Assembly (NCBI GenBank): GCA_021151765.1
Contig: JAGKWR010000009.1
Location: 8,525 to 72,524, forward strand
Reading direction: 5' to 3'
Origin: Alphaproteobacteria bacterium
Lineage (GTDB): Bacteria > Pseudomonadota > Alphaproteobacteria > Rickettsiales > UBA1997
DNA: 64,000 nt
Shown piece after piece: positions 3,279-55,300 of the stretch; positions within the stretch are counted from its first letter, which is position 1; every line of letters begins with the position of its first letter. The notes below the pieces were generated by a model. That model did not search any database and was not told the DNA's origin. It saw only the letters and a program-made list of their open reading frames with translations. Position numbers and translations under genes: made by a program.

Positions 3279-3591
3279 AAAACTTTTAATTATTTTTCTT
3301 GCAGCAACTTCGAGCTGTGGGCCGAAATATCCAGACACTAATACTGAGATTGTATGTCCCAGCGGTTCTGCGATGTTGATTAAGTTCATTCGCGCGAAAG
3401 ATCTTCGCGCTGCAATTAATGAAAGCTATAAAAGAAAAAAGTTAGAGAAAACTTCTGAAAATTTCACTGTTGTAAGATTGCCAGACAAAAGATCTTTTTC
3501 TTTGAAGATGTCTCCTGAATATGCAGCTAGCTGTGAGTTGCGTGAAACTAAAATTGGTGAAGTAGAGAATGACTACATTCACCACTTTTAG
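3250..3591 (+). CDS. hypothetical small lipoprotein-like protein
   Basis: ATG at 3250 gives MLDKLEQLSKKLLIIFLAATSS|CG, a hydrophobic segment followed by Cys. It overlaps the bamE 3' end in another frame. No family recognised and the start is uncertain. Confidence 0.35.
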   Translation: MLDKLEQLSKKLLIIFLAATSSCGPKYPDTNTEIVCPSGSAMLIKFIRAKDLRAAINESYKRKKLEKTSENFTVVRLPDKRSFSLKMSPEYAASCELRETKIGEVENDYIHHF

Positions 3592-3593
3592 CT

Positions 3594-4457
3594 TTAGATT
3601 AATCTCCAAGCAGTTTCGTCACTTAATAATTTATGCAGCATTTTGTTGTTAATGCCATGTCCGGTTTTAACACCTTTAAATTGTCCGGAAATGTAATAGC
3701 CAGCAAGGTAGATGTCGCCTATGAAATCGAGAGTTTTATGTCTAACAAATTCATTCTCGTAACGTAATCCGCCTTCATTAACGATTCCGTTTTCTCCAAC
3801 CAAAATTGCATTTTTAAGAGATCCACCTTTAGCTAAACCCATTTTGTGAAGCTGCTCAATTTCGTGTTGGAATCCGAAGGTTCTAGCTCTTGCCAAATCA
3901 TTTTTAAAAGACGCAAAAGTAGTTTGATAATCAAAACTTTGTTTTTGGATGTGCTTATGATTGAAGTCGATATCAAGACTAATTGAGAATTCATTAGCAG
4001 GAGAAACCTCAATCATTTTACCGTCTTCTTCTTCAATTTTTACAGTTTTTAGTACTTCAATTACGTGTCGTGCTTTTTCCTGAACATTAATTCCAGCGCA
4101 TTCGAGCAAAAAAACGAATGGTTCAGAACTGCCATCCATAATTGGAACCTCAGGAGCATCAATATCGATATATAAGTTATCGATGCCACAACCCCAAATT
4201 GCCGCCATTAAATGTTCGATTGTTGAAACTTTGGTGCCAAATTCATTGGAAATGGTTGTTCCCAGATTCGTTGTAACAACATTTTTGTAATGAGCTCTGA
4301 CATTTGCTTTTGTTGCTTCAACGTCAGTTCTGCGGAAAACTATTCCAGTATCGCAAGGGGCAGGATGAAGAGTAATTGTAGTGTCGACTCCAGAGTGTAA
4401 TCCGACACCATTGCAACTGATTTTGCTATTAATAGTTTTTTGAGAGGAAATGAACAT
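3594..4457 (-). CDS. lpxC: UDP-3-O-acyl-N-acetylglucosamine deacetylase
   Basis: GVGLHSG...ITLHPA...GIVF and HKTLDFIGD...GHGINNK motifs typical of LpxC. Confidence 0.9.
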   Translation of the reverse strand: MFISSQKTINSKISCNGVGLHSGVDTTITLHPAPCDTGIVFRRTDVEATKANVRAHYKNVVTTNLGTTISNEFGTKVSTIEHLMAAIWGCGIDNLYIDIDAPEVPIMDGSSEPFVFLLECAGINVQEKARHVIEVLKTVKIEEEDGKMIEVSPANEFSISLDIDFNHKHIQKQSFDYQTTFASFKNDLARARTFGFQHEIEQLHKMGLAKGGSLKNAILVGENGIVNEGGLRYENEFVRHKTLDFIGDIYLAGYYISGQFKGVKTGHGINNKMLHKLLSDETAWRLI

Positions 4458-4529
4458 TTTTTTGTAAATTTTATTGTAATTGCATCAGCAATATCAGATT
4501 AGCAAACCAATATTTCAAAGAGATTTTTG

Positions 4530-5222
4530 TTACAAAAAGTTACTGATTTTACTTGGGCTCCAAGGAAATTTTGCAGAAGTCTTTTTCTTAATGATAACTG
4601 TTTTGCAGATTAAATCGTAAGCTGTGGTTTTGCGTTTCGTGAAACTTTGAATTTGTCCCCAAAGCACAAATAATAAACCGAAAAAAACGTTGGCAGTTGA
4701 AAAAGTAACTGCTTGGAAAAAAGTTAGGTTATTTCCAAGCTGAAAAGAAATTATGTAAAAAATATAGATGAACGGCAACACGGACAAAAAATAATGCATT
4801 AGTCCTAAGTTAAAACTCATTGGATCACCATTTTCTTTTTGAATTGTGATTTTCATCAAACGTTTACCAATTGTTGCCTGCCAAGATGAACAATTGAGAA
4901 GAGCATGATAAAGTGCACCCAGGAAGACAACAGCCGAATAAAACAACAACATAATGATAAAAATTCGATGATGAACTACGAAACTAATGTGTTCAGGGTT
5001 ATTTTTGACAAATTCAGTTCCGAAATGATCACGAAACTCTAACAAGAATTTTTGCAACATTGAGTTGATAAAAAGTAATCCGACAATTTGTGTAAAAACT
5101 ATGCGTAAAAACAAAACTATCGAAGCGTCGATCATAGCGGCAAAGCCACGAGTGAAAGTTGTGGCATAGATTTGTTCAGAGTTATTTTGTGAGTTGGAAG
5201 TAAAAAATTTTTCAATGTTCAT
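4530..5222 (-). CDS. RDD-family integral membrane protein
   Basis: RGFAAMIDASIVLFL (RDD-type N-terminal segment) plus several hydrophobic helices. Overlaps the thiL stop by 11 nt. Confidence 0.55.
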   Translation of the reverse strand: MNIEKFFTSNSQNNSEQIYATTFTRGFAAMIDASIVLFLRIVFTQIVGLLFINSMLQKFLLEFRDHFGTEFVKNNPEHISFVVHHRIFIIMLLFYSAVVFLGALYHALLNCSSWQATIGKRLMKITIQKENGDPMSFNLGLMHYFLSVLPFIYIFYIISFQLGNNLTFFQAVTFSTANVFFGLLFVLWGQIQSFTKRKTTAYDLICKTVIIKKKTSAKFPWSPSKISNFL

Positions 5223-6219
5223 AGCCAGTTTTTTTAATTTTTATTTTACGATTTTCTGCGTCGATTACGGCAGCTCTGTAGTTCTTAGTGTTGGTTTTTT
5301 GGAAACTACCAATGCAAGTTAAATCAAGTTTCAAATCTTGTGATAATTGTAGAATCTTTTTCTGATCTTTTGGTTTAACTGCGAAAATTAATTCGTAATC
5401 TTCACCTCCGGAAATCAGATCTTCAATTGTGATTTGAGGGTTTTTTTGCAAGAAATTTTGACTAGCAGAGGACAGTGGAATTTTTGATAACTCAATAATT
5501 GCTGAAATTTTAGAAGATCGACAAATTTGGTTGATATCAGCAAGTAAGCCATCCGAGACGTCAGTCGCACAGTTAGATAAGTTTTGCGCGACTAGTTTTT
5601 CTCCAAGTTGAACTCTAGGTTGAGGAAAAAAATGTCTTTTTTCTAAAAAGTTTTGAAATTTTTTAGAAATTTTAGTGATCTGTTTCCGATTTGGATTTTG
5701 TTCAATTCCAGATAGTAATCTGTAAATGTAAGCATCACCAATAGTTGCGGAAACAAAAATCAAATCACCATCCTTAGCATTGCAACGTTTAAGGTTTTTA
5801 CCTTTTTTAGCTTTGCCGAGAATAGTTAAGGAAAATGTCAAATTGCTTGATTTTACTGTATCTCCACCGATCAAACACAATGAAAATTCTTCCTGAGTTT
5901 TTTTTAAACCACGGGTGAAATCACTTAAAAATTTGGTATCAGTAACGCCATTTTTGCAAAATCCCAACATGTAATAAAGAGGTGTTGCACCTGAAGAAGC
6001 AAGGTCGGAGATGTTGCTACGCAATAGTTTTGAAGCGATTCTAAAACCACCATCTGTTGTTGAAAAATGCACATCCTGAGTCATCAAATCTTTACTGATT
6101 ACTAGCTCTTCGCTGATATCTAAACTAACAATCGCGGCATCATCAGCAAGGTTTTGCGAGGCTTGGCAGTTTTTCGTCAAGGGTTTGAAGTATTTATCAA
6201 TCAAATCGAATTCTTTCAT
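5212..6219 (-). CDS. thiL: thiamine-monophosphate kinase
   Basis: MKEFDLIDKYF...DDAAIV...DLMTQDVHF...LIGGDT, an AIR-synthase-like layout typical of ThiL. ATGA overlap with the upstream DUF2063 gene. Confidence 0.85.
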   Translation of the reverse strand: MKEFDLIDKYFKPLTKNCQASQNLADDAAIVSLDISEELVISKDLMTQDVHFSTTDGGFRIASKLLRSNISDLASSGATPLYYMLGFCKNGVTDTKFLSDFTRGLKKTQEEFSLCLIGGDTVKSSNLTFSLTILGKAKKGKNLKRCNAKDGDLIFVSATIGDAYIYRLLSGIEQNPNRKQITKISKKFQNFLEKRHFFPQPRVQLGEKLVAQNLSNCATDVSDGLLADINQICRSSKISAIIELSKIPLSSASQNFLQKNPQITIEDLISGGEDYELIFAVKPKDQKKILQLSQDLKLDLTCIGSFQKTNTKNYRAAVIDAENRKIKIKKTGYEH

Positions 6220-6974
6220 AAAGCGAATTTTGTAATCAAGCCGTTGGAAATAAAGAAATTTAACAAAGCGCCAATGTCAATTTCACGGTTTTCATTTTTC
6301 TTTTTGGAACTTTGACGATCGCTGTAATCGCACAAATTTTGATAAATTTTATAAAGTGGTAATTTTTGAGCAACTAATTCGGCAAATTTGAATTGTTCTG
6401 CACTCAAATTAAAGATTTGGTTACGATGAATGATTACTTGTTGTGGCTGTGTTTTTTTAATCTTTTTTTCTTGTTGCCAAATTGAGTAAATTGGAAACTC
6501 GGAATTAAATAAAACTGCTGTTTTTGAAAGGCTGAAAATAATTTTTTCGAAATTGGCTAAATCTATTTTTTGCAATTCGGTTATTTCAATTTTTTCATTA
6601 TCTTGCGATGCGAAATAAGATTGATGAAAAAATAATTCTAACTGAGCTAGATCATGCAAATATGAAGGCTTTAGAGGTTTTGTAAATTCAGGAAATTCTT
6701 GTCCAAAATTATTTAAATCTCCGCTTTTGGAAGGAAAAGCATGACAAAATTGGTGCGCCACTTTTTCAAATTTTTTCTCTCCAATAATTTTTTTAGTGAT
6801 CGGATAAGTTGATAATAAAACAGCTAAAAAATTTCCGAAAACATTATTGCGATAAATGTTTAGACGAGCCAAAGCTTCGGTTTTGCCATAATTTGTAGCG
6901 CTGATTATTTTTTGCTGTTTTTTATCAAAAAGATGCTGAGCAAAATTATTTTGCAATTGCTGAAGATTAGACAT
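6216..6974 (-). CDS. DUF2063-family protein (HvfC/BufC-type partner of MNIO RiPP maturases)
   Basis: MSNLQQLQNNFAQHLF...LNIYRNNVFGNFLAVLLSTYP...SKSGDLNNFGQEFPEF is characteristic of DUF2063. I chose ATG 6974, which overlaps the DUF692 stop by 8 nt, rather than the TTG at 7049 used by the ORF track. Confidence 0.7.
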   Translation of the reverse strand: MSNLQQLQNNFAQHLFDKKQQKIISATNYGKTEALARLNIYRNNVFGNFLAVLLSTYPITKKIIGEKKFEKVAHQFCHAFPSKSGDLNNFGQEFPEFTKPLKPSYLHDLAQLELFFHQSYFASQDNEKIEITELQKIDLANFEKIIFSLSKTAVLFNSEFPIYSIWQQEKKIKKTQPQQVIIHRNQIFNLSAEQFKFAELVAQKLPLYKIYQNLCDYSDRQSSKKKNENREIDIGALLNFFISNGLITKFAL

Positions 6975-7839
6975 TTTGCAAAATCCTCTCTGCTTTTTTA
7001 GCTTCGTTGAGTAAAATTTTGAACTCAGGAAAATCTTGATCCCATTCAATTAAAGAAGGTGCTTTTCCAAAATGCTGAAGCGCTTTTTTATATATTTCCC
7101 AAACTTCGTCACGCACCAAATTATTGTGAGTATCAATCAATATTTCTTGATAATTTTTACCATCAAAAATTTGTGAAACAGAATGACCAGCAAGGTGAAT
7201 TTCATAAACAATTGCTGGGTTTATTTTCTCAATGTAATCCGTGCTTTTGAACTGTTGGCAGTTTTTTGAGCTTACGAAAATATTATTCACATCTAATAAA
7301 AGTCCGCAGCCAGTTTTTTTGGCAATCTGATTTATAAAATCGGCTTCTTCCATTTCTTGGGTGGCAAATGCTAAATAAGACGAAGGGTTTTCAACTAAAA
7401 TCTGACGTTTCAGAAAATTTTGCATGAGATCAATGTTATCGCAAATCGCTGTTAAAGATTCTTTTGTATAACACAGTGGTAGTAAATCATTTAGGTGCTG
7501 ATTACCTATTTTACCCCAAGAAATGTGATCAGAAATCAAGAATGGCTGTACTTGATCAACTAAAATTTTTAGTTTTTTTAAATGAAGTGAGTCTATCTTC
7601 TGTGCCGAACCAAGCGAGTTTCCTACGCAGTGCAGGCTTATGGGAAAGTTAGAACGGATTTTGAGTAAGTCTTGAACTAAGTGGCTATTGTCAGCGTAGT
7701 AATTTTCGGAGTGAACTTCAAACCAACCGATTTTTTTAGAGATTTGTTCAGGGTTTTTGATGATGTGAGAAATATATGGTGATCGAAGCCCAACTCCAAC
7801 TAAATTGGTCGGAGTTGGAACTTTTTTAAAACTCATCAC
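6967..7839 (-). CDS. DUF692/UPF0276 multinuclear non-heme iron oxidase (MNIO; MbnB/HvfB/BufB-type RiPP maturase)
   Basis: VGVGLRSPY...WFEVHSENYY...ISLHCVGNSLGS...ISDHISW...EIHLAGH follows the DUF692 TIM-barrel motif pattern. Confidence 0.8.
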   Translation of the reverse strand: MMSFKKVPTPTNLVGVGLRSPYISHIIKNPEQISKKIGWFEVHSENYYADNSHLVQDLLKIRSNFPISLHCVGNSLGSAQKIDSLHLKKLKILVDQVQPFLISDHISWGKIGNQHLNDLLPLCYTKESLTAICDNIDLMQNFLKRQILVENPSSYLAFATQEMEEADFINQIAKKTGCGLLLDVNNIFVSSKNCQQFKSTDYIEKINPAIVYEIHLAGHSVSQIFDGKNYQEILIDTHNNLVRDEVWEIYKKALQHFGKAPSLIEWDQDFPEFKILLNEAKKAERILQNV

Positions 7840-7845
7840 TGAAAA

Positions 7846-8154
7846 TTAGTTTTTCTTTTCTTCAGTTTTAGTTTCAGCTTTAGCTTCAGTTTTCACTTCA
7901 GCTTTTTTGTGTTTTTTGTGTTTTTTTCCTTCTTTTTTAACTTCTTTTTTAGCTTCTTCAGATTTTGTTACTTTAGCTTCTTCTTTTTTAGCAGCTGAGC
8001 ATTTGTGAGCTTCGTCTTTTTTAACAGCAGCAGCACAACCATTTTGAGCACCACAAGCGTGTGATTCTTTTTTTGCACCAAAGCTAGAACAAGAAGCAAC
8101 AAGGCTCAAAGTTGCAATACCAGCGGCAACTGATTGTAAGAATTTTTTATTCAT
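7846..8154 (-). CDS. putative MNIO-modified RiPP precursor / small Cys-containing lipoprotein with Lys/Glu-rich tail
   Basis: Signal peptide plus lipobox LVAS|C22. Three further Cys: HAC34G, NGC40AAA, HKC52S. K/E/A low-complexity tail with HKKHKK. Located 6 nt upstream of the MNIO gene. Confidence 0.6.
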   Translation of the reverse strand: MNKKFLQSVAAGIATLSLVASCSSFGAKKESHACGAQNGCAAAVKKDEAHKCSAAKKEEAKVTKSEEAKKEVKKEGKKHKKHKKAEVKTEAKAETKTEEKKN

Positions 8155-8214
8155 ATTTTTTACCAGATTTTTTATTGAGAGAGATCAGTTTGAAATGCGG
8201 TGATTGTTAGGCGT

Positions 8215-8248
8215 AAATTATGCGACAATTTTGACTTGTCAATTGTCG
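8215..8248 (-). promoter_or_regulatory. candidate sigma70 promoter of the precursor operon with an embedded 8-bp inverted repeat (operator candidate)
   Basis: On the minus strand, TTGACA (8242-8237), a 16-nt spacer, then TAATTT (8220-8215). The inverted repeat CGACAATT (8223-8230) / AATTGTCG (8241-8248) flanks the -35 and spacer. TTGACT lies on the plus strand (8232-8237), facing kbl. Confidence 0.3.
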
Positions 8249-8308
8249 GAGTCGGATTTTAATGAAGAGGTGCCTTTAGTTTTCAAACGATTAATTAATC
8301 AAATTAAA

Positions 8309-9520
8309 ATGATCAAAGACAGATTTTTAAGTGATATCCGTTCAGAACTCGACGCGCTTAAGTTGAACGGTTTGTACAAAAGTGAATATGAAATTGTTAC
8401 TTCGCAATCTTCAGAAATTGAAATTGCTACTCGAGATGGTCAAAAAAAGGTGCTTAACTTTTGCGCCAACAATTATTTGGGCTTAGCTAACAATAATAAT
8501 TTGATCGAAGTTGCCAAAAAATCACTCGATGATTATGGCCTTGGCACAGCTTCTGTGCGTTTTATTTGCGGCACTTTTGATTTGCACAAAACTTTCGAAG
8601 AAAAATTGGCGAAGTTTTTGGGTTTTGAAGATGTTATCACTTTCTCTTCGTGTTTCGCGGCTAACGGTGCGGTTTTTGCTGCTTTGCTTGATGAACAAGA
8701 TGCGATTATTTCTGCCGATTTAAACCATGCGAGTTTGATTGACGGTATCAGACTTTCCAAAGCTGCGCGCTATTTTTATAAATTTGACGACATGGCAGAT
8801 TTAGAGCGCAAATTGCAAGAAGCGCAAAGTGCTAAAAATCGTCTAATCGTTACCGACGGGGTTTTTTCAATGGATGGCGACATTGCTGATTTGCAATCAA
8901 TTTGTGATTTAGCTGAAAAATATGATGCCATGGTTTTGGTCGATGATTCGCACGCCACTGGTTTTATCGGTGAAGATGGCCGCGGAACTTTGCAATATCG
9001 TCAAGTTGAGGGTCGTGTCGATATTTTGACTTCAACTTTAGGAAAGGCTTTGGGCGGAGCCGGTGGCGGTTTTATCGCTTCTAAAAAAGAAGTGATTGAT
9101 AAATTGCGCAACAAATCTCGTCCTTATTTATTTTCAAACAACATCTTACCAGCAGTTGCGGCAACTGGCATTGAGATCATCAACATGATTTCAGATTCTA
9201 AAGTTTTGATCAAAAAATTAGCCGACAACACCGCTTATTTCCGTCAAAAAATGGTAGAAGCTGGTTTTGATATTCGCGATAAAAATGGCGTTCATCCAGT
9301 AGTTCCTGTAATGTTGTACGACGCGGTTTTGGCGAGCAAATTCGCTAAAATGATGATTGAAGAAGAAGGAATTTATGTTATCGCCTTTTCGTTTCCGGTA
9401 GTTCCGAAAAATGAAGCGCGAATTCGTGTGCAAATTTCGGCGGCGCATGAAAAAGAACATTTAGATCGTGCCATCGCTGCATTTATCAAAGTTGCCAAAA
9501 AACTAAACGTAATCAAATAA
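8309..9520 (+). CDS. kbl: glycine C-acetyltransferase (2-amino-3-ketobutyrate CoA ligase)
   Basis: Nearly colinear with E. coli Kbl as I remember it: NFCANNYLGL, ASVRFICGT, DDSHATGF, TSTLGKALGG (PLP lysine), IRVQISAAH. I moved the start to ATG 8309 (MIKDRF...). Confidence 0.85.
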   Translation: MIKDRFLSDIRSELDALKLNGLYKSEYEIVTSQSSEIEIATRDGQKKVLNFCANNYLGLANNNNLIEVAKKSLDDYGLGTASVRFICGTFDLHKTFEEKLAKFLGFEDVITFSSCFAANGAVFAALLDEQDAIISADLNHASLIDGIRLSKAARYFYKFDDMADLERKLQEAQSAKNRLIVTDGVFSMDGDIADLQSICDLAEKYDAMVLVDDSHATGFIGEDGRGTLQYRQVEGRVDILTSTLGKALGGAGGGFIASKKEVIDKLRNKSRPYLFSNNILPAVAATGIEIINMISDSKVLIKKLADNTAYFRQKMVEAGFDIRDKNGVHPVVPVMLYDAVLASKFAKMMIEEEGIYVIAFSFPVVPKNEARIRVQISAAHEKEHLDRAIAAFIKVAKKLNVIK

Positions 9521-10614
9521 TGAAAAAAGTTGCTGCATTAATTGCTTTGGCTGTGGTTTTGAATTCTTGTGGATCAACCAAAGAAGCGAGAATTCAAAAA
9601 AATTTCAACGCGGCGTGGAATGAATTTTTTGTGCAAGATTTTGACCAAACCAGAGTTGTTGATGTTTACGTTATAACCAATCGCCAAGCCAAGAATGCCA
9701 ATTTTTTGTGCGATGATGAGCAATTCGGCGTCAATTTTTCCAAAACTCTGAAATACGGAATTTGCAAAGTTAGCGTGCCAAAAAATCACACAATTGGTGA
9801 AATTGAAGTCGCCAACGAAAATAACAAATCACTGCAGAATTTTTTTAAAGTGACGCAAGCTGTTGCAATTAAAGAGGCGGATTTATTGAAATCTTTGCAA
9901 GATAGTCAGCGTTATCCTTTGGTTTTTGTTCACGGTTTTAATGTGCGTTTCCAAGAAGCGGTTTTGCGAGCAGCGCAAATTGCTTATGATTTGAAATATC
10001 AAGGTCCGATAGTTTTATACACTTGGCCAGCGGGCGCTGGATTTGGCTTTTTGGAAGAAAAAATGTTGAATAAAACTTACGCCGACAACACGGCGAATGC
10101 TCGTGATTCTGTCGCGCTTTTCAAAAGCTTTTTGCTCGATTTGCAAAACAATAAAATTCAAATCAATTTAGCAGTGCATTCGATGGGACATCAAGTGGTG
10201 TTGCCGGCTTTGAAAGAAATCGCCGAAAGCAATCCCAAAGAGCCTTTGATTAACCAATTAGTTTTGAATGCGCCAGATTTTGAAGTTAATAGTTTCCGTA
10301 AATTTTCAAAAAATTTGAAAAAGGTCAGCAAACGCACAACGCTTTATTGCTCGCCAAATGACAAAGCGATGATTGCTTCCAAAACTTTCAACAACAATAA
10401 CCGCCTTGGCGCTTGTGATTTTGTCGAAGATGTCGATAGCATAAATGTTGGTCAAATTGATGATCCAACTATTGGTCTTGGTCATGGCTATTACTCTTCG
10501 CGTGCTATTTTGGGTGATGTTTTCCAAACTTTGATTGGCGTTGATGCCAACAAAAGACTTTTTATCGCCAAGTCCAATCCCAACAGCCCTTATCAATATT
10601 TTTTACGTAAATAA
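9520..10614 (+). CDS. alpha/beta hydrolase, DUF900-like lipoprotein
   Basis: Lipobox VLNS|C, then VFVHGFN and VHSMGHQV (nucleophile elbow). TAATG overlap with the kbl stop. Confidence 0.6.
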   Translation: MKKVAALIALAVVLNSCGSTKEARIQKNFNAAWNEFFVQDFDQTRVVDVYVITNRQAKNANFLCDDEQFGVNFSKTLKYGICKVSVPKNHTIGEIEVANENNKSLQNFFKVTQAVAIKEADLLKSLQDSQRYPLVFVHGFNVRFQEAVLRAAQIAYDLKYQGPIVLYTWPAGAGFGFLEEKMLNKTYADNTANARDSVALFKSFLLDLQNNKIQINLAVHSMGHQVVLPALKEIAESNPKEPLINQLVLNAPDFEVNSFRKFSKNLKKVSKRTTLYCSPNDKAMIASKTFNNNNRLGACDFVEDVDSINVGQIDDPTIGLGHGYYSSRAILGDVFQTLIGVDANKRLFIAKSNPNSPYQYFLRK

Positions 10615-10751
10615 TGTCGGAAGAAAAAAAACCGGAAAACATAGAAATTCCTGACAAATCTTTGATTATGGCGCGCGCCACAACGATTGCGCTTGGCATT
10701 GTTTTGGCAACATTGGCTGTACTTTTTGTAATTTTAACTTTGATCAAATGA
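10614..10751 (+). CDS. hypothetical 45-aa single-pass membrane protein (not in the ORF track)
   Basis: My own translation: MSEEKKPENIEIPDKSLIMARATTIALGIVLATLAVLFVILTLIK*. The ATG overlaps the upstream stop (TAATG) and the TGA overlaps the dgt ATG (ATGA). Polar N-terminus plus one hydrophobic helix. Confidence 0.45.
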   Translation: MSEEKKPENIEIPDKSLIMARATTIALGIVLATLAVLFVILTLIK

Positions 10752-17329: not shown

Positions 17330-20300
17330 TTAAAGAAGTTTTTGCAGTTGTTCAATTACGCGTTGTGCGGCGACAATTTTGTTGTCTGGATTTTTAATAT
17401 CGCAAACGAAAAGAATTTTATGACCTTGATGAATTTTGATCTGGTTCTTGCTTGAAAACACCATTTTCAAAAGTGCATCAGGATTGGCGAATTTATTGTC
17501 TTTGAAGCTGATTAGAATTCCGTCAGAAATTGTTTCGATACGCTCAACTCCAACTTTGCGGCAAGATGATTTTAAGCGCGCCACTTCCATCAAATTTTTG
17601 ACTTCCTGCGGCAATTTTCCGAAACGATCATTCATTTCGTTGGATAAATCTTCTTCATCTTCCAAATTTTTGATTGCTGAAATCTTTTTGTAGAAACTCA
17701 TGCGCAGCGACAAATCAGGCATATATTCTTCTGGAATCAGCAAGGAAATTCCGAGTTTGATTGAAACTGAGAAGTCGAGATCAACGCTGACAATTTCATT
17801 ATTTTCAGATTTAATTGCCGGAGAATTTTTCAACTCCTCAATAGTTTCGAGCAACATTTGTTGATAAAGTTCAACGCCGGTTTCATTGATGTGGCCGGAT
17901 TGTTCATCGCCAAGTAAATTACCGCTGCCGCGAATATCCATGTCGTGAGTTGCAACAGTGAAGCCAACGCCGAGCGAATCGAGATTTTGCATCACTTCCA
18001 ATTTTTTGCGCGATTCGTCAGAAACTCTGCGATTATCGAGCATGAAATAGCAGTAAGCGCGCATTTTGCCGCGACCAACACGACCGCGTAGTTGGTAAAG
18101 TTGCGATAAGCCAAACATTTCGGATTTGTAAATAATCATGGTGTTGGCGTCAGAAACGTCGATTCCTGATTCGACAATTGTGGTGGAAAGCAACATGTCG
18201 ATTTTGCCGTCGACAAAATCATTCATAATTTGATCGAGTTTGCTTGGCGGCATTTGGCCGTGAGCACTGGTGATTTTGATTTCAGGAAGCAGAATTTTCA
18301 AACGCGGTTCGATTTCTTCCAAATCGCGAATGCGTGGCACCACGAAGAAAACGCGACCACCGCGATTATGTTCACGCATCACAGCTTCGCGGACGATTAC
18401 TGAATCGTAAGGCATTACGAAATTGCGTACTGCCAAACGATCAAGCGGCGGAGTTGAAATTAAACTCAAATCTTTCACGCCAGTCAGCGACATTTGCAAC
18501 GTGCGCGGAATTGGTGTGGCAGAAAGCGTCAAAACGTGAACTTCGTTACGCATTTCTTTCAAACGCTCTTTTTGAGCGACGCCGAAATGTTGTTCTTCGT
18601 CAATTATGACCAATCCAAGATTTTTGAATTCGATCGATTTTTGTAAAATAGCATGAGTTCCAATCACAATTTGCGCTTCATTTGCGGCAATTTGTGCGCG
18701 CACTTCTTTGGCTTTGGCCGGAGTTACTAAACGTGAAAGCTGTACAATTTTTACGTCACTTCCTTCAAATCTTTTCGAAAAATTCTTGAAATGTTGACGA
18801 GCAAGCAAAGTAGTCGGAGCAACAACAGCAACTTGCGCTTTATTGTTTTCACTTCCTACAACAATAGCCGCAGCACGCAGCGCCACTTCAGTTTTGCCGA
18901 AACCAACGTCACCACAAATTAAACGATCCATCGGTGAACCTTTGCGCAAATCTTCCTCAACTTCTTCAATCGCGCGCATTTGATCTTCAGTTTCGACAAA
19001 GCCAAAGCGATTGCGGAATTCATCGTAAAAATGTTGTTCTGGTGTGAAAGCTGATGCTTTTTTCAAGTGACGTGCAGCAGCGATTTTCAATAATTCTTCC
19101 GCGGCAACTTTGATGCGTTTACGAACTTTATCGCGACGATTTTTCCACGCAGCAACGCCCAAACGATCAAGTTGAATCAGCGGGTTGTCGGCGCCGTAGC
19201 GAGTGATTAAACCGATATCGTCAACGGGAACGAATAAAGTGTCGTTGCCGCCATATTCGATTTTGATCATGTCGCTTTTAATATTTCCGGCGCTGATAGT
19301 TTGAATGCCTTGGAAGCGGCCAATACCATGATCGCGATGCACAATCAACTCGCCGGCTTGAATCGTTAAACCTTCTTCAATTAATCGTTGGGAAGCGGCG
19401 CGGCTACTTTTTTTGCGGACGATTTTTTCACCAAAAATTGCTTGTTCACCAATCAACATTTGGTCAGTAGTTTCAAAACCAAAATGCAGCGGAAGAACTA
19501 TTGTGGGACATTTCAGGTTGTAATCTGGAAGTAGTTTCGCAACACGATCTTTGAAAGCTTCGCTTAAGCAAGCGATGACGAATTTTTTGCCGGCAGTGTA
19601 TTCTTTTAGAAGTTCCAACGGATCACGTTGATTGGTTTTGCCAGCTAAAGCGAAATCAGGAATCGCTTTGATTTCGAGATCTAAAATACGCTGATTTTTG
19701 TCAGCTTCGTCAAATTGGTTGAACTGAATGGCAGTTTGTTTGGCGAGTTTGTCACGTAAATCAGCGGCGCTGAAATAAAGCAATTCCGGCTTAATTGGGT
19801 TATAAATTATGCCGTCTTTGATTTTTTGTTCGGCGACGCGAGCTTGATAATATTCGTTGACTAGTTCGTCGCGATGTTTGGCAAAGGTAAAAATTTTATC
19901 GCTGAAGAAAATTGCTGGCTGACGCAAATAATCAAAAAAACTGGAAAGTTCTTCTTCAAAGAAAAGTGGTAACCAATTTTCCATGCCAGAATAAGTGCGC
20001 ATTTCCGAAATCGCCGAGTAAAGATGATCGTCTACGGCGGCACCAAAACTGGCGCGATATTTTTGACGGAAAGTTTCTACCGATTTTTTGCTCATGATCA
20101 CTTCGTTGCTCGGCAAAATTTCCAGTGACTTTACCGATTCTTGGGTCATTTGTGTTAAAGGATCGAAGACTTTGATCGATTCAACTTCTTCACCGAAAAA
20201 ATCGATGCGATAACCAATTAAATCTGCGGCTTGTTGCATCACCAAATCAACGATACCGCCACGCACCGCAAATTCGCCAACATCATTGGCGCAAGCTTGG

Positions 20301-20761
20301 CGTTCATAACCTTTGGAAACCAAAACTTCGGCGATTTGCGTAATCGAAATTTTGCTGCCAACTTGTAAATAAAGTCCTAAATCCTTGATCTGTTTAGGCT
20401 GAATCGTTTTTTGTAAAATTGCATTGATACCGGCAATAACGAAAAATTTTTGGCCATCTTTACGTGTGATTAATTTGTAAAGCGTCTTGATGCGTTCTGA
20501 TAAAATTGCCGCTTTTGGCGATGCACGATCATAAGGCAGAGAATCCCAAGCCGGAAAAACCAAGATTTGCGTGTCTGGTGCAAAAAACTGAATTTGCTTT
20601 TGGACCATCTCAATTTCAGCGTCATTTTGGGCGATGAAAAGCGTGTCAGAATCGGGAAAATTTTTAGCAATTTCGGCAGTCAAAAAAACCTGCGCATCCG
20701 CAGGAGTTTTGATTAAAACACAAGATTCTTTGATTTGTTTTAGCTTAACTTTGTAATCCAT
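17330..20761 (-). CDS. mfd: transcription-repair coupling factor
   Basis: 1143 aa. UvrB-homology N-terminus, CarD-like RNAP-interaction domain (IVHRDHGIGRF), helicase motifs GDVGFGKTEVA and IIDEEQHFG, and a TRG region. Confidence 0.95.
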   Translation of the reverse strand: MDYKVKLKQIKESCVLIKTPADAQVFLTAEIAKNFPDSDTLFIAQNDAEIEMVQKQIQFFAPDTQILVFPAWDSLPYDRASPKAAILSERIKTLYKLITRKDGQKFFVIAGINAILQKTIQPKQIKDLGLYLQVGSKISITQIAEVLVSKGYERQACANDVGEFAVRGGIVDLVMQQAADLIGYRIDFFGEEVESIKVFDPLTQMTQESVKSLEILPSNEVIMSKKSVETFRQKYRASFGAAVDDHLYSAISEMRTYSGMENWLPLFFEEELSSFFDYLRQPAIFFSDKIFTFAKHRDELVNEYYQARVAEQKIKDGIIYNPIKPELLYFSAADLRDKLAKQTAIQFNQFDEADKNQRILDLEIKAIPDFALAGKTNQRDPLELLKEYTAGKKFVIACLSEAFKDRVAKLLPDYNLKCPTIVLPLHFGFETTDQMLIGEQAIFGEKIVRKKSSRAASQRLIEEGLTIQAGELIVHRDHGIGRFQGIQTISAGNIKSDMIKIEYGGNDTLFVPVDDIGLITRYGADNPLIQLDRLGVAAWKNRRDKVRKRIKVAAEELLKIAAARHLKKASAFTPEQHFYDEFRNRFGFVETEDQMRAIEEVEEDLRKGSPMDRLICGDVGFGKTEVALRAAAIVVGSENNKAQVAVVAPTTLLARQHFKNFSKRFEGSDVKIVQLSRLVTPAKAKEVRAQIAANEAQIVIGTHAILQKSIEFKNLGLVIIDEEQHFGVAQKERLKEMRNEVHVLTLSATPIPRTLQMSLTGVKDLSLISTPPLDRLAVRNFVMPYDSVIVREAVMREHNRGGRVFFVVPRIRDLEEIEPRLKILLPEIKITSAHGQMPPSKLDQIMNDFVDGKIDMLLSTTIVESGIDVSDANTMIIYKSEMFGLSQLYQLRGRVGRGKMRAYCYFMLDNRRVSDESRKKLEVMQNLDSLGVGFTVATHDMDIRGSGNLLGDEQSGHINETGVELYQQMLLETIEELKNSPAIKSENNEIVSVDLDFSVSIKLGISLLIPEEYMPDLSLRMSFYKKISAIKNLEDEEDLSNEMNDRFGKLPQEVKNLMEVARLKSSCRKVGVERIETISDGILISFKDNKFANPDALLKMVFSSKNQIKIHQGHKILFVCDIKNPDNKIVAAQRVIEQLQKLL

Positions 20762-20762
20762 T

Positions 20763-23255
20763 TTAAGAAATTTTTTCGACTGAGAAATAAGCCTCGCTAG
20801 AATTTATATCTGGGGGCAGAATTGCGATGCCTTGTGATTTGGCGGCTTGCAGGAAGATGTTGATTTTGTCGGTGTTGTCGATCTCTAAATTAATTGAAGC
20901 GGTGAAAAATTCGACAGGGTAGTGCGCTTTCAAATAAGCGGTTTGGTAAGAAATTAAAGCGTAAGCCGCAGCGTGAGATTTGTTGAAACCGTAGCCCGCG
21001 AATTTGTCGACGAGGTCAAAAATTTCGCCCGCTTGTTTTTCCGGCACGTTGTTTTTCATGGCGCCTTCAACGAAAATAGCGCGCTGTTTGTCCATTTCTT
21101 CTTTGATTTTTTTACCCATAGCGCGACGAAGCAAATCAGCGCCGCCCAAGGTGTATCCTGCCAAAACGCGGGCGATTTCCATAACTTGTTCTTGGTAAAC
21201 AATTACACCGTAAGTTTCTTTCAAAGTATTTTCCAAAAGCGGGTGCGGATATTCGATTTTTTCCAATCCGTGTTTACGGCGAATATAGGTTGGAATGTTG
21301 TCCATCGGGCCTGGGCGATACAGCGAAATAAGGGCGATAATATCTTCAATTTTATCAGATTTCATTTGGCGCAGAACAGAACGCATTCCCGAAGACTCGA
21401 TTTGGAAAACGCCGATCGAGTCGCCTTTGGCCAACATGTCGAAGGTTTTTTTGTCGTCTAAACGAATGTTGGAAATGTCGATTTTAACGCCGCGAGTTTT
21501 TTCGATTAATTTTACAGCTTCGGAAATTGTGGTCAGAGTTTTCAATCCCAAAAAGTCGAACTTAACCAAGCCAGCACTTTCCGCATATTTCATCGAATAA
21601 CCAACCGCTGGCATTTCTGAGCCTTCGTCGTTGTAGAGCGCACAAATTTCGTGGAGCGGTTTATCACCAATCACCACGCCAGCAGCGTGAGTTGAGGCAT
21701 GGCGGTTCAAGCCTTCAAGTTTTAAACCAATATCAACCAATTTATTGACTTGCGGATCTTCCAAAATGGCTTGCTGCAAGTCTTTGTCCATTTCAATGGC
21801 CTTTTCCAAAGTTACGGCTTCGATGGCGTTAAATGGAATCAATTTACAAATGCGATCAACTTGGTTGTAAGCCATTTGTAAAACGCGGCCAACGTCTTTT
21901 AGCACAGCGCGTGCCTGCAATTTTCCGAAAGTTATAATTTGTGCGACATATTCGCGGCCATATTTTTTTTGTACGTAATCGATCACTTCGTCACGGCGCG
22001 ATTGGCAAAAATCGACGTCAAAATCGGGCATTGAAACACGATCAGGATTCAAAAAACGTTCAAAAAGAAGTCCGAAACGAATCGGATCAAGATCGGTAAT
22101 TTGCAGCGCCCAAGCCACAATTGAACCAGCACCAGAACCACGTCCTGGGCCGACAGGAATATCATTATTTTTAGCCCATTTGATGAAGTCGGATACGATC
22201 AAGAAATAGCCATCGAACTGCATTTTGGTGATGACGGAAACCTCAAAATCAAGGCGCGCGAAATATTGTTGGCGCAGTTCCTGTTGAGTTGTTGCGGCAA
22301 TTTCTTCAACCGCAAATTTACGTTGAAGGCGCATTTCCAAACCTTCTGAAGCTTGTTTTTTCAACTCTGCCGCTTCGTTGAAATCAGCGGAATTATTGAA
22401 GCGCGGCAAAGTTGGTGGGCGTTCAAAGGCCATGATGTGGCACTTTTTAGCGATATTAACCGTATTTTCGATGGCTTCGGGAATATCGCTGAATAATTCT
22501 TCAAGCTCTTGCGGAGATTTAAAATATTGCTCTGGTGAATTTTTTTTGCGATCAGCTTCCAAGAAAAATCTACCTTCGCCAATACAGCTCAAAATATCTT
22601 GTGCTTCGTGCATTTCGCGACTCAAAAAATAAACGTCGTTGGTTGCAACTAAAGGCAGATTATTTTTGAAAGCGAGATCGATAAATTTAGCTTCGAGTTT
22701 TTCTTCAATTGCAGTGTTATGGCGGGTGATTTCGATGTAAAAATTATTGGGAAAAGTTTGCGCTAATTGTTTGACGACATCGTTAAGTTTATTGTCTTGG
22801 TTGTTGTTTATCAGCTTGGCTAAAGGACCTTCAGCTCCGCCAGATAAAGCGATTAAACCGGCGGATTTTTCAGCCAAAAGTTCGAAAGAAATGTGTGGAG
22901 ATAAACCATTTTCTCTGTTTAAAAAGCTGTGCGAAACCAAATACATCAAGTTTTTGTAGCCTTCGTCATTGTGAGCAATTAAAGGCAATTTCGAAAAAGA
23001 ATTTTCGATGTCGAGATTGGATAAGTTTTTTTGATTCGGATCGTTGAAGCGAATTAATATTTCACAGCCAATAATTGGTTGAATTCCTGCTTTTTTGCAG
23101 GCTGAAGAAAACTCAAGCGCGGCGAAAAGATTTTGGCTGTCCATTATGCCAATTGCGGGAATTTTGAAGCTTTCTGCGCGTTTGATTAAATCTGGAATTT
23201 TAATCGCACCTTGGCAAAGCGAGTAGGTTGTGTGATTTCGTAAAGGAATGAACAT
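20763..23255 (-). CDS. dnaE: DNA polymerase III alpha subunit, C-terminally truncated (830 aa)
   Basis: PHP N-terminus (MFIPLRNHTTYSL), GPGRGSGAGS, PDFDVDF catalytic aspartates and a fingers region (GFNKSHAAAY). The ORF ends ...LPPDINSSEAYFSVEKIS*, 1 nt before the mfd ATG. Confidence 0.9.
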   Translation of the reverse strand: MFIPLRNHTTYSLCQGAIKIPDLIKRAESFKIPAIGIMDSQNLFAALEFSSACKKAGIQPIIGCEILIRFNDPNQKNLSNLDIENSFSKLPLIAHNDEGYKNLMYLVSHSFLNRENGLSPHISFELLAEKSAGLIALSGGAEGPLAKLINNNQDNKLNDVVKQLAQTFPNNFYIEITRHNTAIEEKLEAKFIDLAFKNNLPLVATNDVYFLSREMHEAQDILSCIGEGRFFLEADRKKNSPEQYFKSPQELEELFSDIPEAIENTVNIAKKCHIMAFERPPTLPRFNNSADFNEAAELKKQASEGLEMRLQRKFAVEEIAATTQQELRQQYFARLDFEVSVITKMQFDGYFLIVSDFIKWAKNNDIPVGPGRGSGAGSIVAWALQITDLDPIRFGLLFERFLNPDRVSMPDFDVDFCQSRRDEVIDYVQKKYGREYVAQIITFGKLQARAVLKDVGRVLQMAYNQVDRICKLIPFNAIEAVTLEKAIEMDKDLQQAILEDPQVNKLVDIGLKLEGLNRHASTHAAGVVIGDKPLHEICALYNDEGSEMPAVGYSMKYAESAGLVKFDFLGLKTLTTISEAVKLIEKTRGVKIDISNIRLDDKKTFDMLAKGDSIGVFQIESSGMRSVLRQMKSDKIEDIIALISLYRPGPMDNIPTYIRRKHGLEKIEYPHPLLENTLKETYGVIVYQEQVMEIARVLAGYTLGGADLLRRAMGKKIKEEMDKQRAIFVEGAMKNNVPEKQAGEIFDLVDKFAGYGFNKSHAAAYALISYQTAYLKAHYPVEFFTASINLEIDNTDKINIFLQAAKSQGIAILPPDINSSEAYFSVEKIS

Positions 23256-52394: not shown

Positions 52395-55300
52395 ATGGAA
52401 GTAATGCAAAATCTTATTGATCAGGTTATCAGTTTTTCTCATCAACAAAAATATGAAAAAGATTTTTCGCGCGAAAAATTTCTCAATTTCGTAAACTTAT
52501 TTTATTTACAAAACCAAGGTCGTGATTTTGTAAATTATTCAGTTGATGAACTACATAACTCAGCCTTATCAAGCTTTAAGTTTTTTTCTGAAAAGAACTC
52601 AATTTTCAAAGTAAGAATCCATAATCCTTCAGAAAAATCAGACGGTTTTGAATCAATCCATACTTTCTTAGAAGTTGTCTCTGATGATATGCCATTCTTG
52701 GTTGATTCAATTGTTGACCATCTTGATAAAATCGGCGTAGCTATCAAAAATATTGTGCATCCAATTTACTCTGTTAGTCGTGACTCGGGCGGTAACTTAT
52801 TAGAAGTTGATGTAAAAAAAGATTCAAAACATGAATCTGTAATTCAGTTGCACTTAAACAAGATTACTGCCAGTTCTGATTTAGAAATGTTACAGTCAGA
52901 CATTACAAAAATTATCGAAACACTAGTTTTGGTTGTTAGTGATTGGAAGAAGATGATTGACGTTGCTGAGAAAGCAAAATCTCAAGTCGAAAATGCTAAA
53001 AAAATCATAAAAGATCAAAAAGAAATTGCCGAAATAAAGGAGTTCATCTCTTGGATGACTACAGGTAACTTCATTTTGTTAGGTGCGAAAGAATTTAACA
53101 TTAAAGACACAGGAAAAGGCAGCTATATTTTAGAAGAAGTTAAAAATTCCAGCCTTGGTGTTTTTGCATCTACTGATCAAGATGTTATTCCAGAAGTTCT
53201 TAACTCATCTGTTGAAGAAGTTTGTGATTCAGTAAAAAATCCTTATGTTATTGAGATTCTGAAATCACGCTATAAGTCGCGTATTCACAAAATAACTAAT
53301 GCAGAACGTGTTCGTGTTCAAAAAATTTCTGATGAAGGAAAAGTTACTGGTGAATATAGATTCCTAGGATTATTTACTTCGATGGCATACAGCCATACAC
53401 CAAGCAACATTCCTTTGGTAAAGAACAAAATTGCTAAGGTCATAGAAGATTCTGGCTATATTTCAGGAAGTCACAACTACAAAGATTTGGTTTCAGTTTT
53501 GGAATCTTATCCTCGTGATGAGTTATTCCAAACTAATGCTAATGATTTACTACGTATTGCGACTGGTATTGTTGCGATTTGTGGCAGATCACAAGTTAGA
53601 TTTTTCCCACGCAAAGATAAATATAATCGTTTTGTTAGCTGTTTAATTTTTACTCCTCGTGATCGCAGTAACTCTGAGTTGAGAGAAAAAATAAAAAACT
53701 ATCTTGCAGATTTATATAAAGGTGAAGTTGCTGATTCGTTTGTTGAAATCAATGACTCTAAATTAACACGTTTCCACGTAATTATCCGTACAGATAACGG
53801 TATACCTTCTGTCGATACTTTGAAAGTTGAACGTGATATCGCCAATATGACTCGTATTTGGAGTGATGATTTGAGAGAATCTATCTCTGCGAAGTTTGAA
53901 AATGAAAAAAGCATTGCGCTTTTTGCTAAGTATCAGAACGCTTTTTCTGTAAGTTACATTAATCGTTTTGATTCAAAACGTGCTGCTATTGACATTTCTC
54001 GTGTTGAAGAATGTTTGGATAAAAACTCGATTGTTTTCAACTTATATCGTTCAGATGAAAATCTTGCTCCGGAAGTTACAGAATTAAAAATTTACAATCC
54101 TCAGAAAGAGCTTATCCTTTCTGAGATGATGCCAGTTCTTGAAAGCTTTGGTTTCAATGTAATTCAAGAGCATACTTACGTCATAACTCCCGAGTCCGAA
54201 GATCGTAGAGAGTCATCAAAAAAAGTTTGGGTTCACTATTTCCTATTGAATTTGAGCAAACAAGGCGACCAATTTTCTGAAAAAATTAAAATTAATTTCG
54301 AAAAAGCTATCTCTTTGATTTGGAATAAAACGGCAGAAGTTAGTATGCTAAATCGTTTGGTTGTTTCTGCTGATTTGGATTGGAAGCAAATTTACATGCT
54401 TAGAGCCTATTCAAAATACATTCACCAAACTGGCTTTAGATATAGTCAATCTTATGTCGCTGATGTATTGGTTAAGTATCGTGATTTGACTAAATTTTTG
54501 GTTGAAATGTTCGAAGTGAAGTTCAATCCATCATTGAAACTTGATATTGCACAACGTCAAAAAAGAGTTGAAGAAATTACTCATGAAATCTCTTTAGGAT
54601 TAAATCAGGTTAAAGATTTGGTTGATGACGCAACAATTAAAAAATTCCTAAGTGTTATAACTGCGACTTTACGTACAAACTATTATCAATCAGCCAAAGA
54701 AGGTGCTTTTAAAGGCTACGTTTCATTTAAATTTGATTGTAAAAAAGTTTTGGATTTGCCTTTGCCACTTCCTTACGCAGAAATTTTTGTTTATTCTTCA
54801 ACTATGGAAGGTGTTCATTTGCGTGGTGGAAGAGTTGCTCGTGGTGGCTTGCGTTGGTCAGATCGTCATGAAGATTTCCGTACAGAAGTTTTAGGTTTGA
54901 TGAAAGCTCAAATGACTAAAAACGCAGTTATTGTTCCAGTAGGTTCGAAAGGCGGTTTTGTTGTTAAAAAACCAACCGCTGGCTTGTCCCGTGATGAAGT
55001 TTTAAAAGATGGTGTTTCATCTTATCAAACTTTCTTGCGTGGATTGCTTGATGTAACAGATAACGTTGTTGAAGGAAAAATTATTCATCCTCAAAATGTT
55101 GTAATGCATGATGCGGCTGATCCTTATTTGGTAGTTGCTGCTGACAAAGGTACTGCAACTTTCTCAGATATTGCTAATGGTATTTCTGCCGAATATAATT
55201 TTTGGCTTGGTGATGCTTTTGCTTCTGGTGGTTCAGTTGGGTATGATCACAAAAAAATGGGTATCACTGCAAAAGGTGGTTGGGTTTCTGTAATGCGTCA

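Follow-up and report, generated by a model that had tools for sequence, protein, structure and literature searches.

We analyzed a stretch of 64,000 nt (hereafter the window) from a metagenome-assembled genome (MAG) of an Alphaproteobacteria bacterium (GCA_021151765.1, contig JAGKWR010000009.1, positions 8,525-72,524 of the forward strand), which is placed by GTDB in Pseudomonadota; Alphaproteobacteria; Rickettsiales; UBA1997. The GC content of the window is ~35%. The subject is a compact cluster of three genes on the minus strand of the window, encoding a small Cys-containing precursor peptide, a multinuclear non-heme iron oxidase (MNIO), and the partner protein of this oxidase. The original prediction for this DNA had described the cluster as an operon for a peptide made on ribosomes and modified after translation (RiPP), with an atypical, lipobox-bearing precursor. 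The features of the cluster are as follows.

7846..8154, minus strand: precursor gene, 102 amino acids (aa), with a lipoprotein signal peptide, a short Cys core, and a disordered K/E/A tail
8089..8154, minus strand: predicted signal peptide and lipobox of the precursor, codons 1-22, MNKKFLQSVAAGIATLSLVAS-C22, with the C22 codon at 8089-8091
7987..8088, minus strand: core of the precursor, codons 23-56, with C34 (8053-8055), C40 (8035-8037), and C52 (7999-8001)
6967..7839, minus strand: MNIO (DUF692) of the bufferin-maturase type, 290 aa, PF05114 and NF050167
6216..6974, minus strand: partner protein of PME type 1 (PME1; BufC/HvfC-like), 252 aa, DUF2063 and a C-terminal domain resembling a RiPP recognition element (RRE)

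The MNIO gene starts with a GTG 6 nt past the precursor stop, an ATG being located 3 nt further in, and the ATG of the partner gene at 6974 overlaps the MNIO stop by 8 nt. The arrangement of three co-directional genes was thus reproduced in full, including all of the coordinates, gaps, and overlaps that had been predicted. The order precursor-MNIO-partner is the canonical A-B-C order, and of the 29 related loci that were looked at first (L001-L029), 24 share it. Among the open reading frames (ORFs) of the window, no other small Cys-rich ORF was found in the cluster.

The MNIO matches the Pfam family PF05114 (MbnB_TglH_ChrH) with 309.5 bits against a cutoff of 25, and it also passes the NCBIfam equivalog model of BufB (NF050167, MNIO_BufB) with 333.4 bits against a cutoff of 310. 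It stays below the cutoffs of the models for HvfB (NF003818, 204.6 bits vs. 360) and MbnB (63 bits vs. 325), as well as those for ApyH and ChrH. The residues H70, D104/H105, E150, D183/N186, H215/H219, D236/H238, and E265 align with the conserved metal-site motifs of the DUF692 structure 3BWW and of MbnB (7DZ9). The motif residues H70, H105, E150, D183, H215, D236, H238, and E265 are, by comparison with MbnB structures, the presumed iron ligands. With profile scores above the cutoffs and all ligand positions kept, the assignment of 6967-7839 as a DUF692/MNIO enzyme with its iron-ligand set holds.

The partner protein matches PF09836 (DUF2063) over residues 6-97 with 78.9 bits against a cutoff of 27.2. 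Its AlphaFold2 model, built with 49 homologues (predicted local distance difference test score, pLDDT, 89.9; predicted TM score 0.83), has a helical domain at the N terminus and, at approximately residues 146-251, a C-terminal domain built of strands and helices. The top matches of this model in a Foldseek search of the PDB are the RRE proteins, known to bind leader peptides, TbiB1 (5v1u), lasso B1 (6jx3), and PqqD (5sxy), with probabilities of 0.90-0.99 and target TM scores of 0.64-0.69, but with weak E values of 0.27 or worse; 3DEE was not retrieved by the same search. The C-terminal domain of the partner is thus RRE-like as modeled. The combination of DUF2063 and an RRE-like domain is that of the PME type 1 architecture, which has been described for the partners of MNIOs whose substrates bear signal peptides (PMC12452194), and it agrees with the HvfC/BufC-type partner that had been proposed for 6216-6974.

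The precursor begins with MNKKFLQSVAAGIATLSLVAS, which is followed by C22, and contains further Cys residues at positions 34 (SHAC-G), 40 (NGC-A), and 52 (HKC-S), each with a small residue (G, A, or S) directly after it. The tail is rich in K/E/A, holds the motif KKHKKHKK, and ends with TEEKKN. Counted from C22, the mature product would comprise 81 aa, with a net charge of +10 and 4 His; the disordered tail, likewise given as +10, has 24 Lys. In the AlphaFold2 model of the precursor (mean pLDDT 54), a helix at residues 3-20, corresponding to the signal peptide, is the only ordered element, and the rest is disordered, as are other short precursors of the MNIO class.

Thirty-six homologues of the precursor, 79-109 aa in length, were found at E<=0.01 in a collection of 5.8 billion proteins, and a profile search among 1.84 billion cluster representatives yielded 53 clusters (50% identity) at E<=0.001. 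A scan of one genome per GTDB species located relatives in 22 genomes, all of which are MAGs from lakes, reservoirs, or wastewater with the labels Rickettsiales or Alphaproteobacteria, some of the names being obviously mislabeled. The family is real but narrow. In 25 distinct genes, the invariant residues N2, F5, S8, L16, and C22 are encoded by two to four synonymous codons each (four for both S8 and L16, and TGC or TGT for C22), which points to selection on the precursor protein. The codon pattern indicates a real, translated gene, and the homologues and the synonymous codons together speak for the predicted three-Cys, Lys/Glu-tailed precursor and against a spurious ORF. One related locus, L002 (GCA_013565575.1, JACCDM010621413.1), has an identical 108-aa precursor and a fully kept gene order; the contig numbering of its assembly, above 620,000, suggests a very large metagenome or host-genome assembly containing the bacterium.

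The 106 distinct members of the family contain 2-9 further Cys residues each. Across 381 family Cys, the residue at -2 is N/H in 84%, the residue at -1 is K in 49% and otherwise G/T/S, and the residue at +1 is S/A/G in 79%, giving a family motif of [N/H]-[K/G/T/S]-C-[S/A/G]. The first unit of the core reads E-S-N/H-x-C-G, the second Cys usually follows five or six residues later (K-N-G-C-A), and the later units, K-[KD]-E-A-[HN]-K-C-[SA], are variable in number. C34 is invariant in the alignment and C52 is present in at least 90% of the members. All of the HKC repeat units are gone from the precursor of L025, and the precursor of L018 (L018:6001-6294) carries an expanded ANKCS/SNKCS run, with 11 Cys in 97 aa; as judged from these sequences, the repeat number is evolutionarily labile, like that of the EGKCG precursors. 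The C-terminal heptapeptide K-T-E-E-K-K-N (7849-7869, codons 96-102) is kept in most members, and the tail preceding it is low-complexity and variable. The conservation of this end suggests a specific interaction or a processing signal.

The lipobox of the window precursor, V-A-S-C22, fits the pattern [LVI][ASTVI][GAS]C. Both S21 and C22 are invariant in the alignment, and the lipobox is kept in 105 of the 106 distinct family members. We assigned the precursor as a lipoprotein on the basis of this pattern and its invariance, with C22 predicted to be the first residue after cleavage and to carry the diacylglyceryl group, in line with the membrane-tethered product that had been predicted. The defining combination of the DAG-RiPPs, a lipobox signal peptide beside a RiPP-modifying enzyme, is present in the window precursor and its neighbors. 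The mean pairwise identity of the precursors is 0.80 in the signal peptide vs. 0.50 in the mature part. In contrast, the neighboring DUF900 lipoprotein of the same 16 genomes shows the opposite and usual pattern, with 0.45 in the signal peptide vs. 0.65 in the mature part. Because the signal peptide outconserves the mature peptide, its N-terminal stretch, M-N-K-K-F-L-Q-S-V, is a candidate leader for the RRE, and the signal peptide may double as the recognition (leader) sequence. Such conservation agrees with the proposal that BufB-BufC recognize the signal peptide (PMC12452194).

By analogy with characterized members of the MNIO/PME1 "captophorin" (bufferin/oxazolin-like) class, these three genes probably serve the biosynthesis of a peptide of this class that is anchored by a lipid and binds copper. 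The predicted compact MNIO/DUF2063 RiPP operon with a lipobox Cys precursor is upheld by the BufB cutoff passed, the ligand set, the partner domains, and the near-universal lipobox. More than 24,000 MNIO-PME1 "captophorin" loci have been reported; in this class, the MNIO and PME1 modify Lys-Cys-type motifs by installing 5-thiooxazoles, giving products that bind copper, and FonBC needs a small residue after the Cys (PMC13097082). A revision of oxazolin to a thiooxazole is also reported in 10.64898/2026.07.17.739211. The precursor family functionally resembles this "Lys-Cys" group in having Lys before the Cys in many units and a small residue after it, which is the preference measured for FonBC (PMC13097082).

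The following sequence of events would fit such a system. The partner would bind the 102-aa precursor in the cytoplasm, probably by the conserved N-terminal signal peptide, and present the disordered core to the multi-iron oxidase. The MNIO, with O2, would convert C34, C40, and C52 to 5-thiooxazoles with the loss of 4 Da each, as in characterized relatives. Export by Sec would be followed by the attachment of diacylglyceryl to C22 by Lgt, cleavage by signal peptidase II (LspA), and N-acylation by Lnt, as the lipobox predicts. The mature product would then be anchored in a periplasm-facing membrane, and the Ser at +2 would favor the outer membrane under the sorting rules of E. coli. The N and S donors of the thiooxazoles, perhaps together with the His/Asn at -2, would chelate Cu(I) near the membrane surface, and the disordered tail would reach away from the anchor.

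Several points weigh against this interpretation. It is based directly on the gene order, the enzyme family membership, the ligand set, the lipobox, and a precursor that is conserved and translated; for the chemistry, the lipidation, and the metal, it extrapolates from characterized relatives (PMC13097082, PMC13056109, PMC11626156). The partner scores 53.6 bits against the cutoff of 142 of the HvfC equivalog model NF050145, which classes it as a relative of HvfC rather than an HvfC equivalog. The structural matches of its RRE-like domain have the weak E values given above, and a sequence search of the PDB with the single partner sequence and with the 49-sequence profile returned no match and did not recover 3DEE. 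None of 47 family members (the window protein and 46 relatives) matches NF050137 (KCGExKCG_twice) or NF050188 (HvfA) at E<=10, and a profile-profile alignment of the precursor family with the EGKCG family by hhalign gave a probability of 16.8% over 13 columns of the signal peptide only. No copper-homeostasis gene or regulator was found near the cluster, where the neighbors are housekeeping genes. As for the leader, HvfA without its signal peptide is still modified (PMC11252979), and loci that lack the enzymes retain the same signal peptide, so the conservation of the signal peptide may have another cause.

The loci without the enzymes bear on the function of the peptide. In L023, L026, L029, L030, and L031/L032, which represent at least four distinct organisms, the precursor gene is followed directly by thiL and a gene for an RDD-family membrane protein, and these loci contain neither an MNIO gene nor a partner gene.

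Precursor-like genes at loci without the enzymes: L023:2408-2665; L026:2979-3236; L029:162-386; L030:878-1153; L031:4001-4264

No remnants of the MNIO or partner genes were found in the short gaps of these loci. The precursors there still have the Cys motifs and the conserved signal peptide, and one sub-lineage of this kind diversified without losing its Cys motifs (CN[ST]NSC ... EEGNKC in L023, L030, and L031). Either the enzymes are encoded elsewhere in these genomes, or the lipoprotein may work unmodified, since the Cys motifs and the signal peptide are kept without them. On the latter account, the small gene would encode an ordinary Cys/Lys-rich envelope lipoprotein that binds metal through thiolates and His or acts as a charged spacer, and the MNIO pair would be dispensable, an optional enhancer, or directed at another substrate. 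In a neighbor-joining tree of thiL and RDD, the loci without the enzymes do not form a single clade, which suggests repeated enzyme loss, and unmodified HvfA binds 2-3 Cu(I), although weakly (PMC11252979). However, the absence of the enzymes is established at the locus only, and the tree is a rough distance tree. Furthermore, the precursor gene stands in the canonical position directly upstream of the MNIO gene in most loci, the cluster offers no other small Cys-rich ORF as a substrate, and the residues around the Cys, a small one following it and in many cases Lys preceding it, are those that the enzyme class prefers in its substrates. We therefore regard a lipoprotein that works unmodified as quite unlikely.

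The class of system is already known; what is distinctive here is the precursor. The Pfam and NCBIfam precursor models gave no match to any of the 47 members, even at E<=10, while a synthetic EGKCG peptide used as a positive control scored 84.4 bits on NF050137, confirming that models for HvfA/oxazolin do exist in NCBIfam. The original prediction had anticipated that the precursor would fall outside the current precursor models, and this proved right. The sole Pfam match of the precursor at E<=0.1, LCIB_C_CA with 15.7 bits, is spurious. Membership in the EGKCG/oxazolin family, for which a comparison set of 2,239 precursor matches was collected and 32 were aligned, was rejected on the hidden Markov model searches and the profile-profile comparison, and membership in Buf1 (DUF2282, PF10048) was rejected with no DUF2282 match.

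Compared with the captophorins and bufferins (Leprevost 2024, PMC11626156; Antoine 2025, PMC12452194; Gadgil 2026, PMC13097082), the cluster shares an MNIO that passes the BufB cutoff with the full iron-ligand set, a partner with DUF2063 and an RRE-like domain, the A-B-C order, and a Cys-rich precursor with a Sec-type signal peptide and no classical leader. It differs in that the precursor has no DUF2282 match and is thus not Buf1, has three Cys rather than 6 or 12 and is by inspection not Buf2-like, is accompanied by no DoxX in the 64 kb and by no sigma/anti-sigma pair or other regulator, and is located in a housekeeping region of a ~35% GC genome labeled Rickettsiales. By inspection against the Buf2 (Buf_6/12Cys) and CxxxxC families, the window precursor has three core Cys and a C-x5-C pair, and some of its relatives have C-x4-C (CNTNSC, CSSQKC). 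In the case of oxazolin, fontiphorin, and gonophorin (HvfA, FonA; the EGKCG "Lys-Cys" type), the common features are a short disordered core with an N-proximal Cys pair followed by x-x-K-C-small repeats, a repeat number that varies among relatives, and target Cys that follow Lys and precede a small residue. However, the motif in the window is [A/S]-[H/N]-K-C-[S/A/G] instead of E-G-K-C-G, the Cys pair is C-x5-C (CGAQNGC), and the MNIO scores as BufB and not as HvfB.

The DAG-RiPPs (PMC13056109) include the lipidated chryseobasin-like DybA, the product of a ChrH-type MNIO, and lipo-NedABC of Neisseria dentiae, in which NedA bears EGKCG repeats; the core motif and the precursor family of the window are different. 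The lipobox is fixed across the window family (105 of 106) rather than confined to a subset. The uncharacterized lipoprotein "Cluster X" (CxxxxC) of the same paper could overlap with the window family. In methanobactin (MbnA/MbnB/MbnC), the MNIO likewise turns Cys into N,S copper ligands, and the iron-ligand residues align; in contrast, MbnB is a distant match, the partner is MbnC and not a DUF2063 protein, and MbnA has a leader and no signal peptide, giving a secreted chalkophore with oxazolone-thioamides. The N-terminal string of the precursor was not found in the part of the supplementary tables of Antoine et al. that was covered.

Some features had been listed as unusual in the original prediction; the features themselves are real, but the lipobox, the three Cys, and the missing DoxX are all known or common elsewhere. 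Lipobox-bearing MNIO precursors have already been described: NedA is modified and triacylated in E. coli (PMC13056109), and 16% of the Buf2 precursors have lipoprotein signals (PMC12452194). Beside such MNIOs, 776 unclassified precursors with signal peptides have been counted, among which the three-Cys class is the commonest with 217 (Antoine et al. 2025, PMC12452194); the window family could be included in these 776. What is new is a distinct, unmodeled precursor subfamily in a lineage, Rickettsiales, that has been reported as depleted in such clusters, together with the observations on the signal peptide and on enzyme loss.

The genes around the cluster are as follows.

5212..6219, minus strand: thiL (thiamine-phosphate kinase), TIGR01379
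4530..5222, minus strand: RDD-family membrane protein, PF06271
8155..8308, no strand: intergenic region of 154 nt separating the precursor gene from the divergent kbl, presumed promoter region of the operon
8309-9520, plus strand: kbl (glycine C-acetyltransferase), NF005394, 582.6 bits

ThiL matches TIGR01379 with 264.5 bits against a cutoff of 184, and the RDD protein matches PF06271 with 44.5 bits. The partner gene is joined to thiL by an ATGA overlap and thiL to the RDD gene by an 11-nt overlap, so the predicted run of the operon into these two genes is real at the level of the junctions, and thiL is probably co-transcribed with the partner gene. In the region 3400-8700, a promoter scan gave 16 sites against 15.1 expected, which is the background level, and 7 terminator-like sites were found against a shuffle mean of 3.3 (standard deviation 2.1), about twofold, none of them at a gene junction. 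An Rfam scan of the whole window returned two tRNAs only; it placed neither a riboswitch nor any other RNA near the cluster.

The block of divergent kbl and precursor-MNIO-partner-thiL-RDD recurs in most of the related loci, flanked by lpxC, bamE, rpmF, plsX, and fabH on one side and by genes for DUF900, dGTPase, and gamma-carbonic anhydrase and cysQ, ddl, ftsQ, and ftsA on the other. Since both the block and its flanks recur across the loci, the cluster belongs to a core-genome gene order and not to an island. The gene upstream of the precursor is DUF900 instead of kbl in L014, L017, L018, L019, L022, and L025, and another gene in L028. The thiL-RDD order is kept in every locus long enough to show both, with or without the MNIO.

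The overlaps, the lack of terminator-like sites at the junctions, and the conservation of the partner-thiL-RDD order throughout the main clade could be taken as a sign that thiL and RDD belong functionally to the system, for instance with RDD replacing DoxX as a new accessory membrane component of a five-gene operon. Yet in the loci without the MNIO and partner, thiL-RDD still directly follows the lipoprotein gene, and in L016 and L020 an ORF of 317 aa on the opposite strand (L016:7873-8826 (-)) lies between the partner gene and thiL. In addition, thiL encodes a housekeeping enzyme that acts in the synthesis of thiamine diphosphate, and RDD is not among the domains found at a frequency of at least 5% beside MNIO genes (Antoine et al.). 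The most distant member, L028, has a different layout (6001-9225), consisting of the precursor gene, the MNIO gene, a 232-aa ORF on the opposite strand (7123-7821), the DUF2063 gene, and a DoxX gene (8767-9225; Pfam DoxX, 64 bits) directly after the partner gene, which is the usual position in Hvf and bufferin operons. Because thiL-RDD persists without the MNIO pair and L028 has DoxX after the partner, the linkage looks like inherited gene order and not function; RDD is a conserved neighbor and thiL is judged a housekeeping neighbor. Functional membership of thiL and RDD was rejected on these comparative grounds (the loci without enzymes, the insertion in L016/L020, and the layout of L028), and we consider it very improbable. 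The 317-aa ORF is predicted to encode a membrane protein, for which neither Pfam nor NCBIfam gave a match. The 232-aa ORF of L028 is a hypothetical gene, and the upstream neighbor of this locus also differs.

L028 appears to show the ancestral Hvf/bufferin-like layout, and because it keeps this layout, the main clade appears to have lost DoxX. In accordance with the predicted absence of a DoxX-type gene, none was found anywhere in the 64-kb window, the best tblastn hit with the L028 DoxX having E=0.61. This absence is not unusual, since DoxX accompanies only ~40% of MNIO genes (Antoine et al., PMC12452194).

The setting of the cluster also bears on the use to which the copper might be put. The same modified lipopeptide could serve copper acquisition or delivery, such as the supply of Cu(I) to cbb3/aa3 oxidases in a small genome, rather than detoxification. 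The vertically inherited position in the conserved core genome, between envelope and division genes, is more housekeeping-like than a stress island; no metal-responsive regulator, extracytoplasmic function sigma/anti-sigma pair, or DoxX was found with the cluster; and a chalkophore role has been raised for oxazolin (PMC11252979). The deepest-branching locus with an MNIO, L004, has a DsbD_2 gene and ccoN/ccoO/ccoQ (L004:2756-5781) 1-5 kb upstream of kbl, but such proximity is seen in this one lineage only. Moreover, the experiments reported for relatives indicate protection from copper excess (PMC11626156; PMC13097082), and repeated enzyme loss argues against an essential delivery role. A function in copper delivery is accordingly unlikely in our estimate.

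A more speculative combination of these elements, which we put forward tentatively as possible though not probable, is that the signal peptide is itself the RiPP leader, with MNKKFLQSV read by the RRE of the partner before Sec export, and that the product belongs to the core envelope of a Rickettsiales-like clade with small genomes, in which it is inherited vertically. Two tiers would exist, a basal Cys/His lipoprotein in lineages that lost the enzymes and, in those that kept them, a high-affinity Cu(I) site upgraded by thiooxazoles, and the product might serve copper delivery and not detoxification.

Three further observations concern other parts of the window. The region 9520-10751 encodes a DUF900 alpha/beta-hydrolase lipoprotein (MKKVAALIALAVVLNSC) and, after it, a single-pass membrane protein of 45 aa (10614-10751), the ORF of which overlaps the last base of the DUF900 gene and overlaps the dGTPase gene by 4 nt; a counterpart of 44-46 aa is called in L001, L003, and L007. 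The ORF of the DNA polymerase III alpha subunit at 20763-23255 (minus strand) is only 830 aa long, with PHP, NTPase, and finger domains and no C-terminal OB/tau-binding region at E<=1e-10; its end lies 1 nt ahead of mfd (17330-20761), and it may be a short or split dnaE. The gene at 52395-57236 (plus strand) encodes an NAD-specific glutamate dehydrogenase of 1613 aa, which belongs to the large bacterial type (Bac_GDH_CD, 866 bits); such a gene is large for an apparently small genome.

The known picture of the MNIO/PME1 class is unchanged by this cluster. MNIO/PME1 copper-peptide systems, as we read the cluster, are now placed in an environmental Rickettsiales-like lineage, and a compact unmodeled precursor family is defined by an obligate lipobox, the [N/H]-K-C-[S/A/G] motif, and a conserved KTEEKKN end, which genome-mining models currently miss. 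The signal peptide that outconserves the mature peptide makes the family a natural test case for the recognition of signal-peptide-bearing RiPP precursors before export, and the apparently repeated loss of the enzymes with the lipoprotein kept offers a natural comparison of the modified and unmodified forms.

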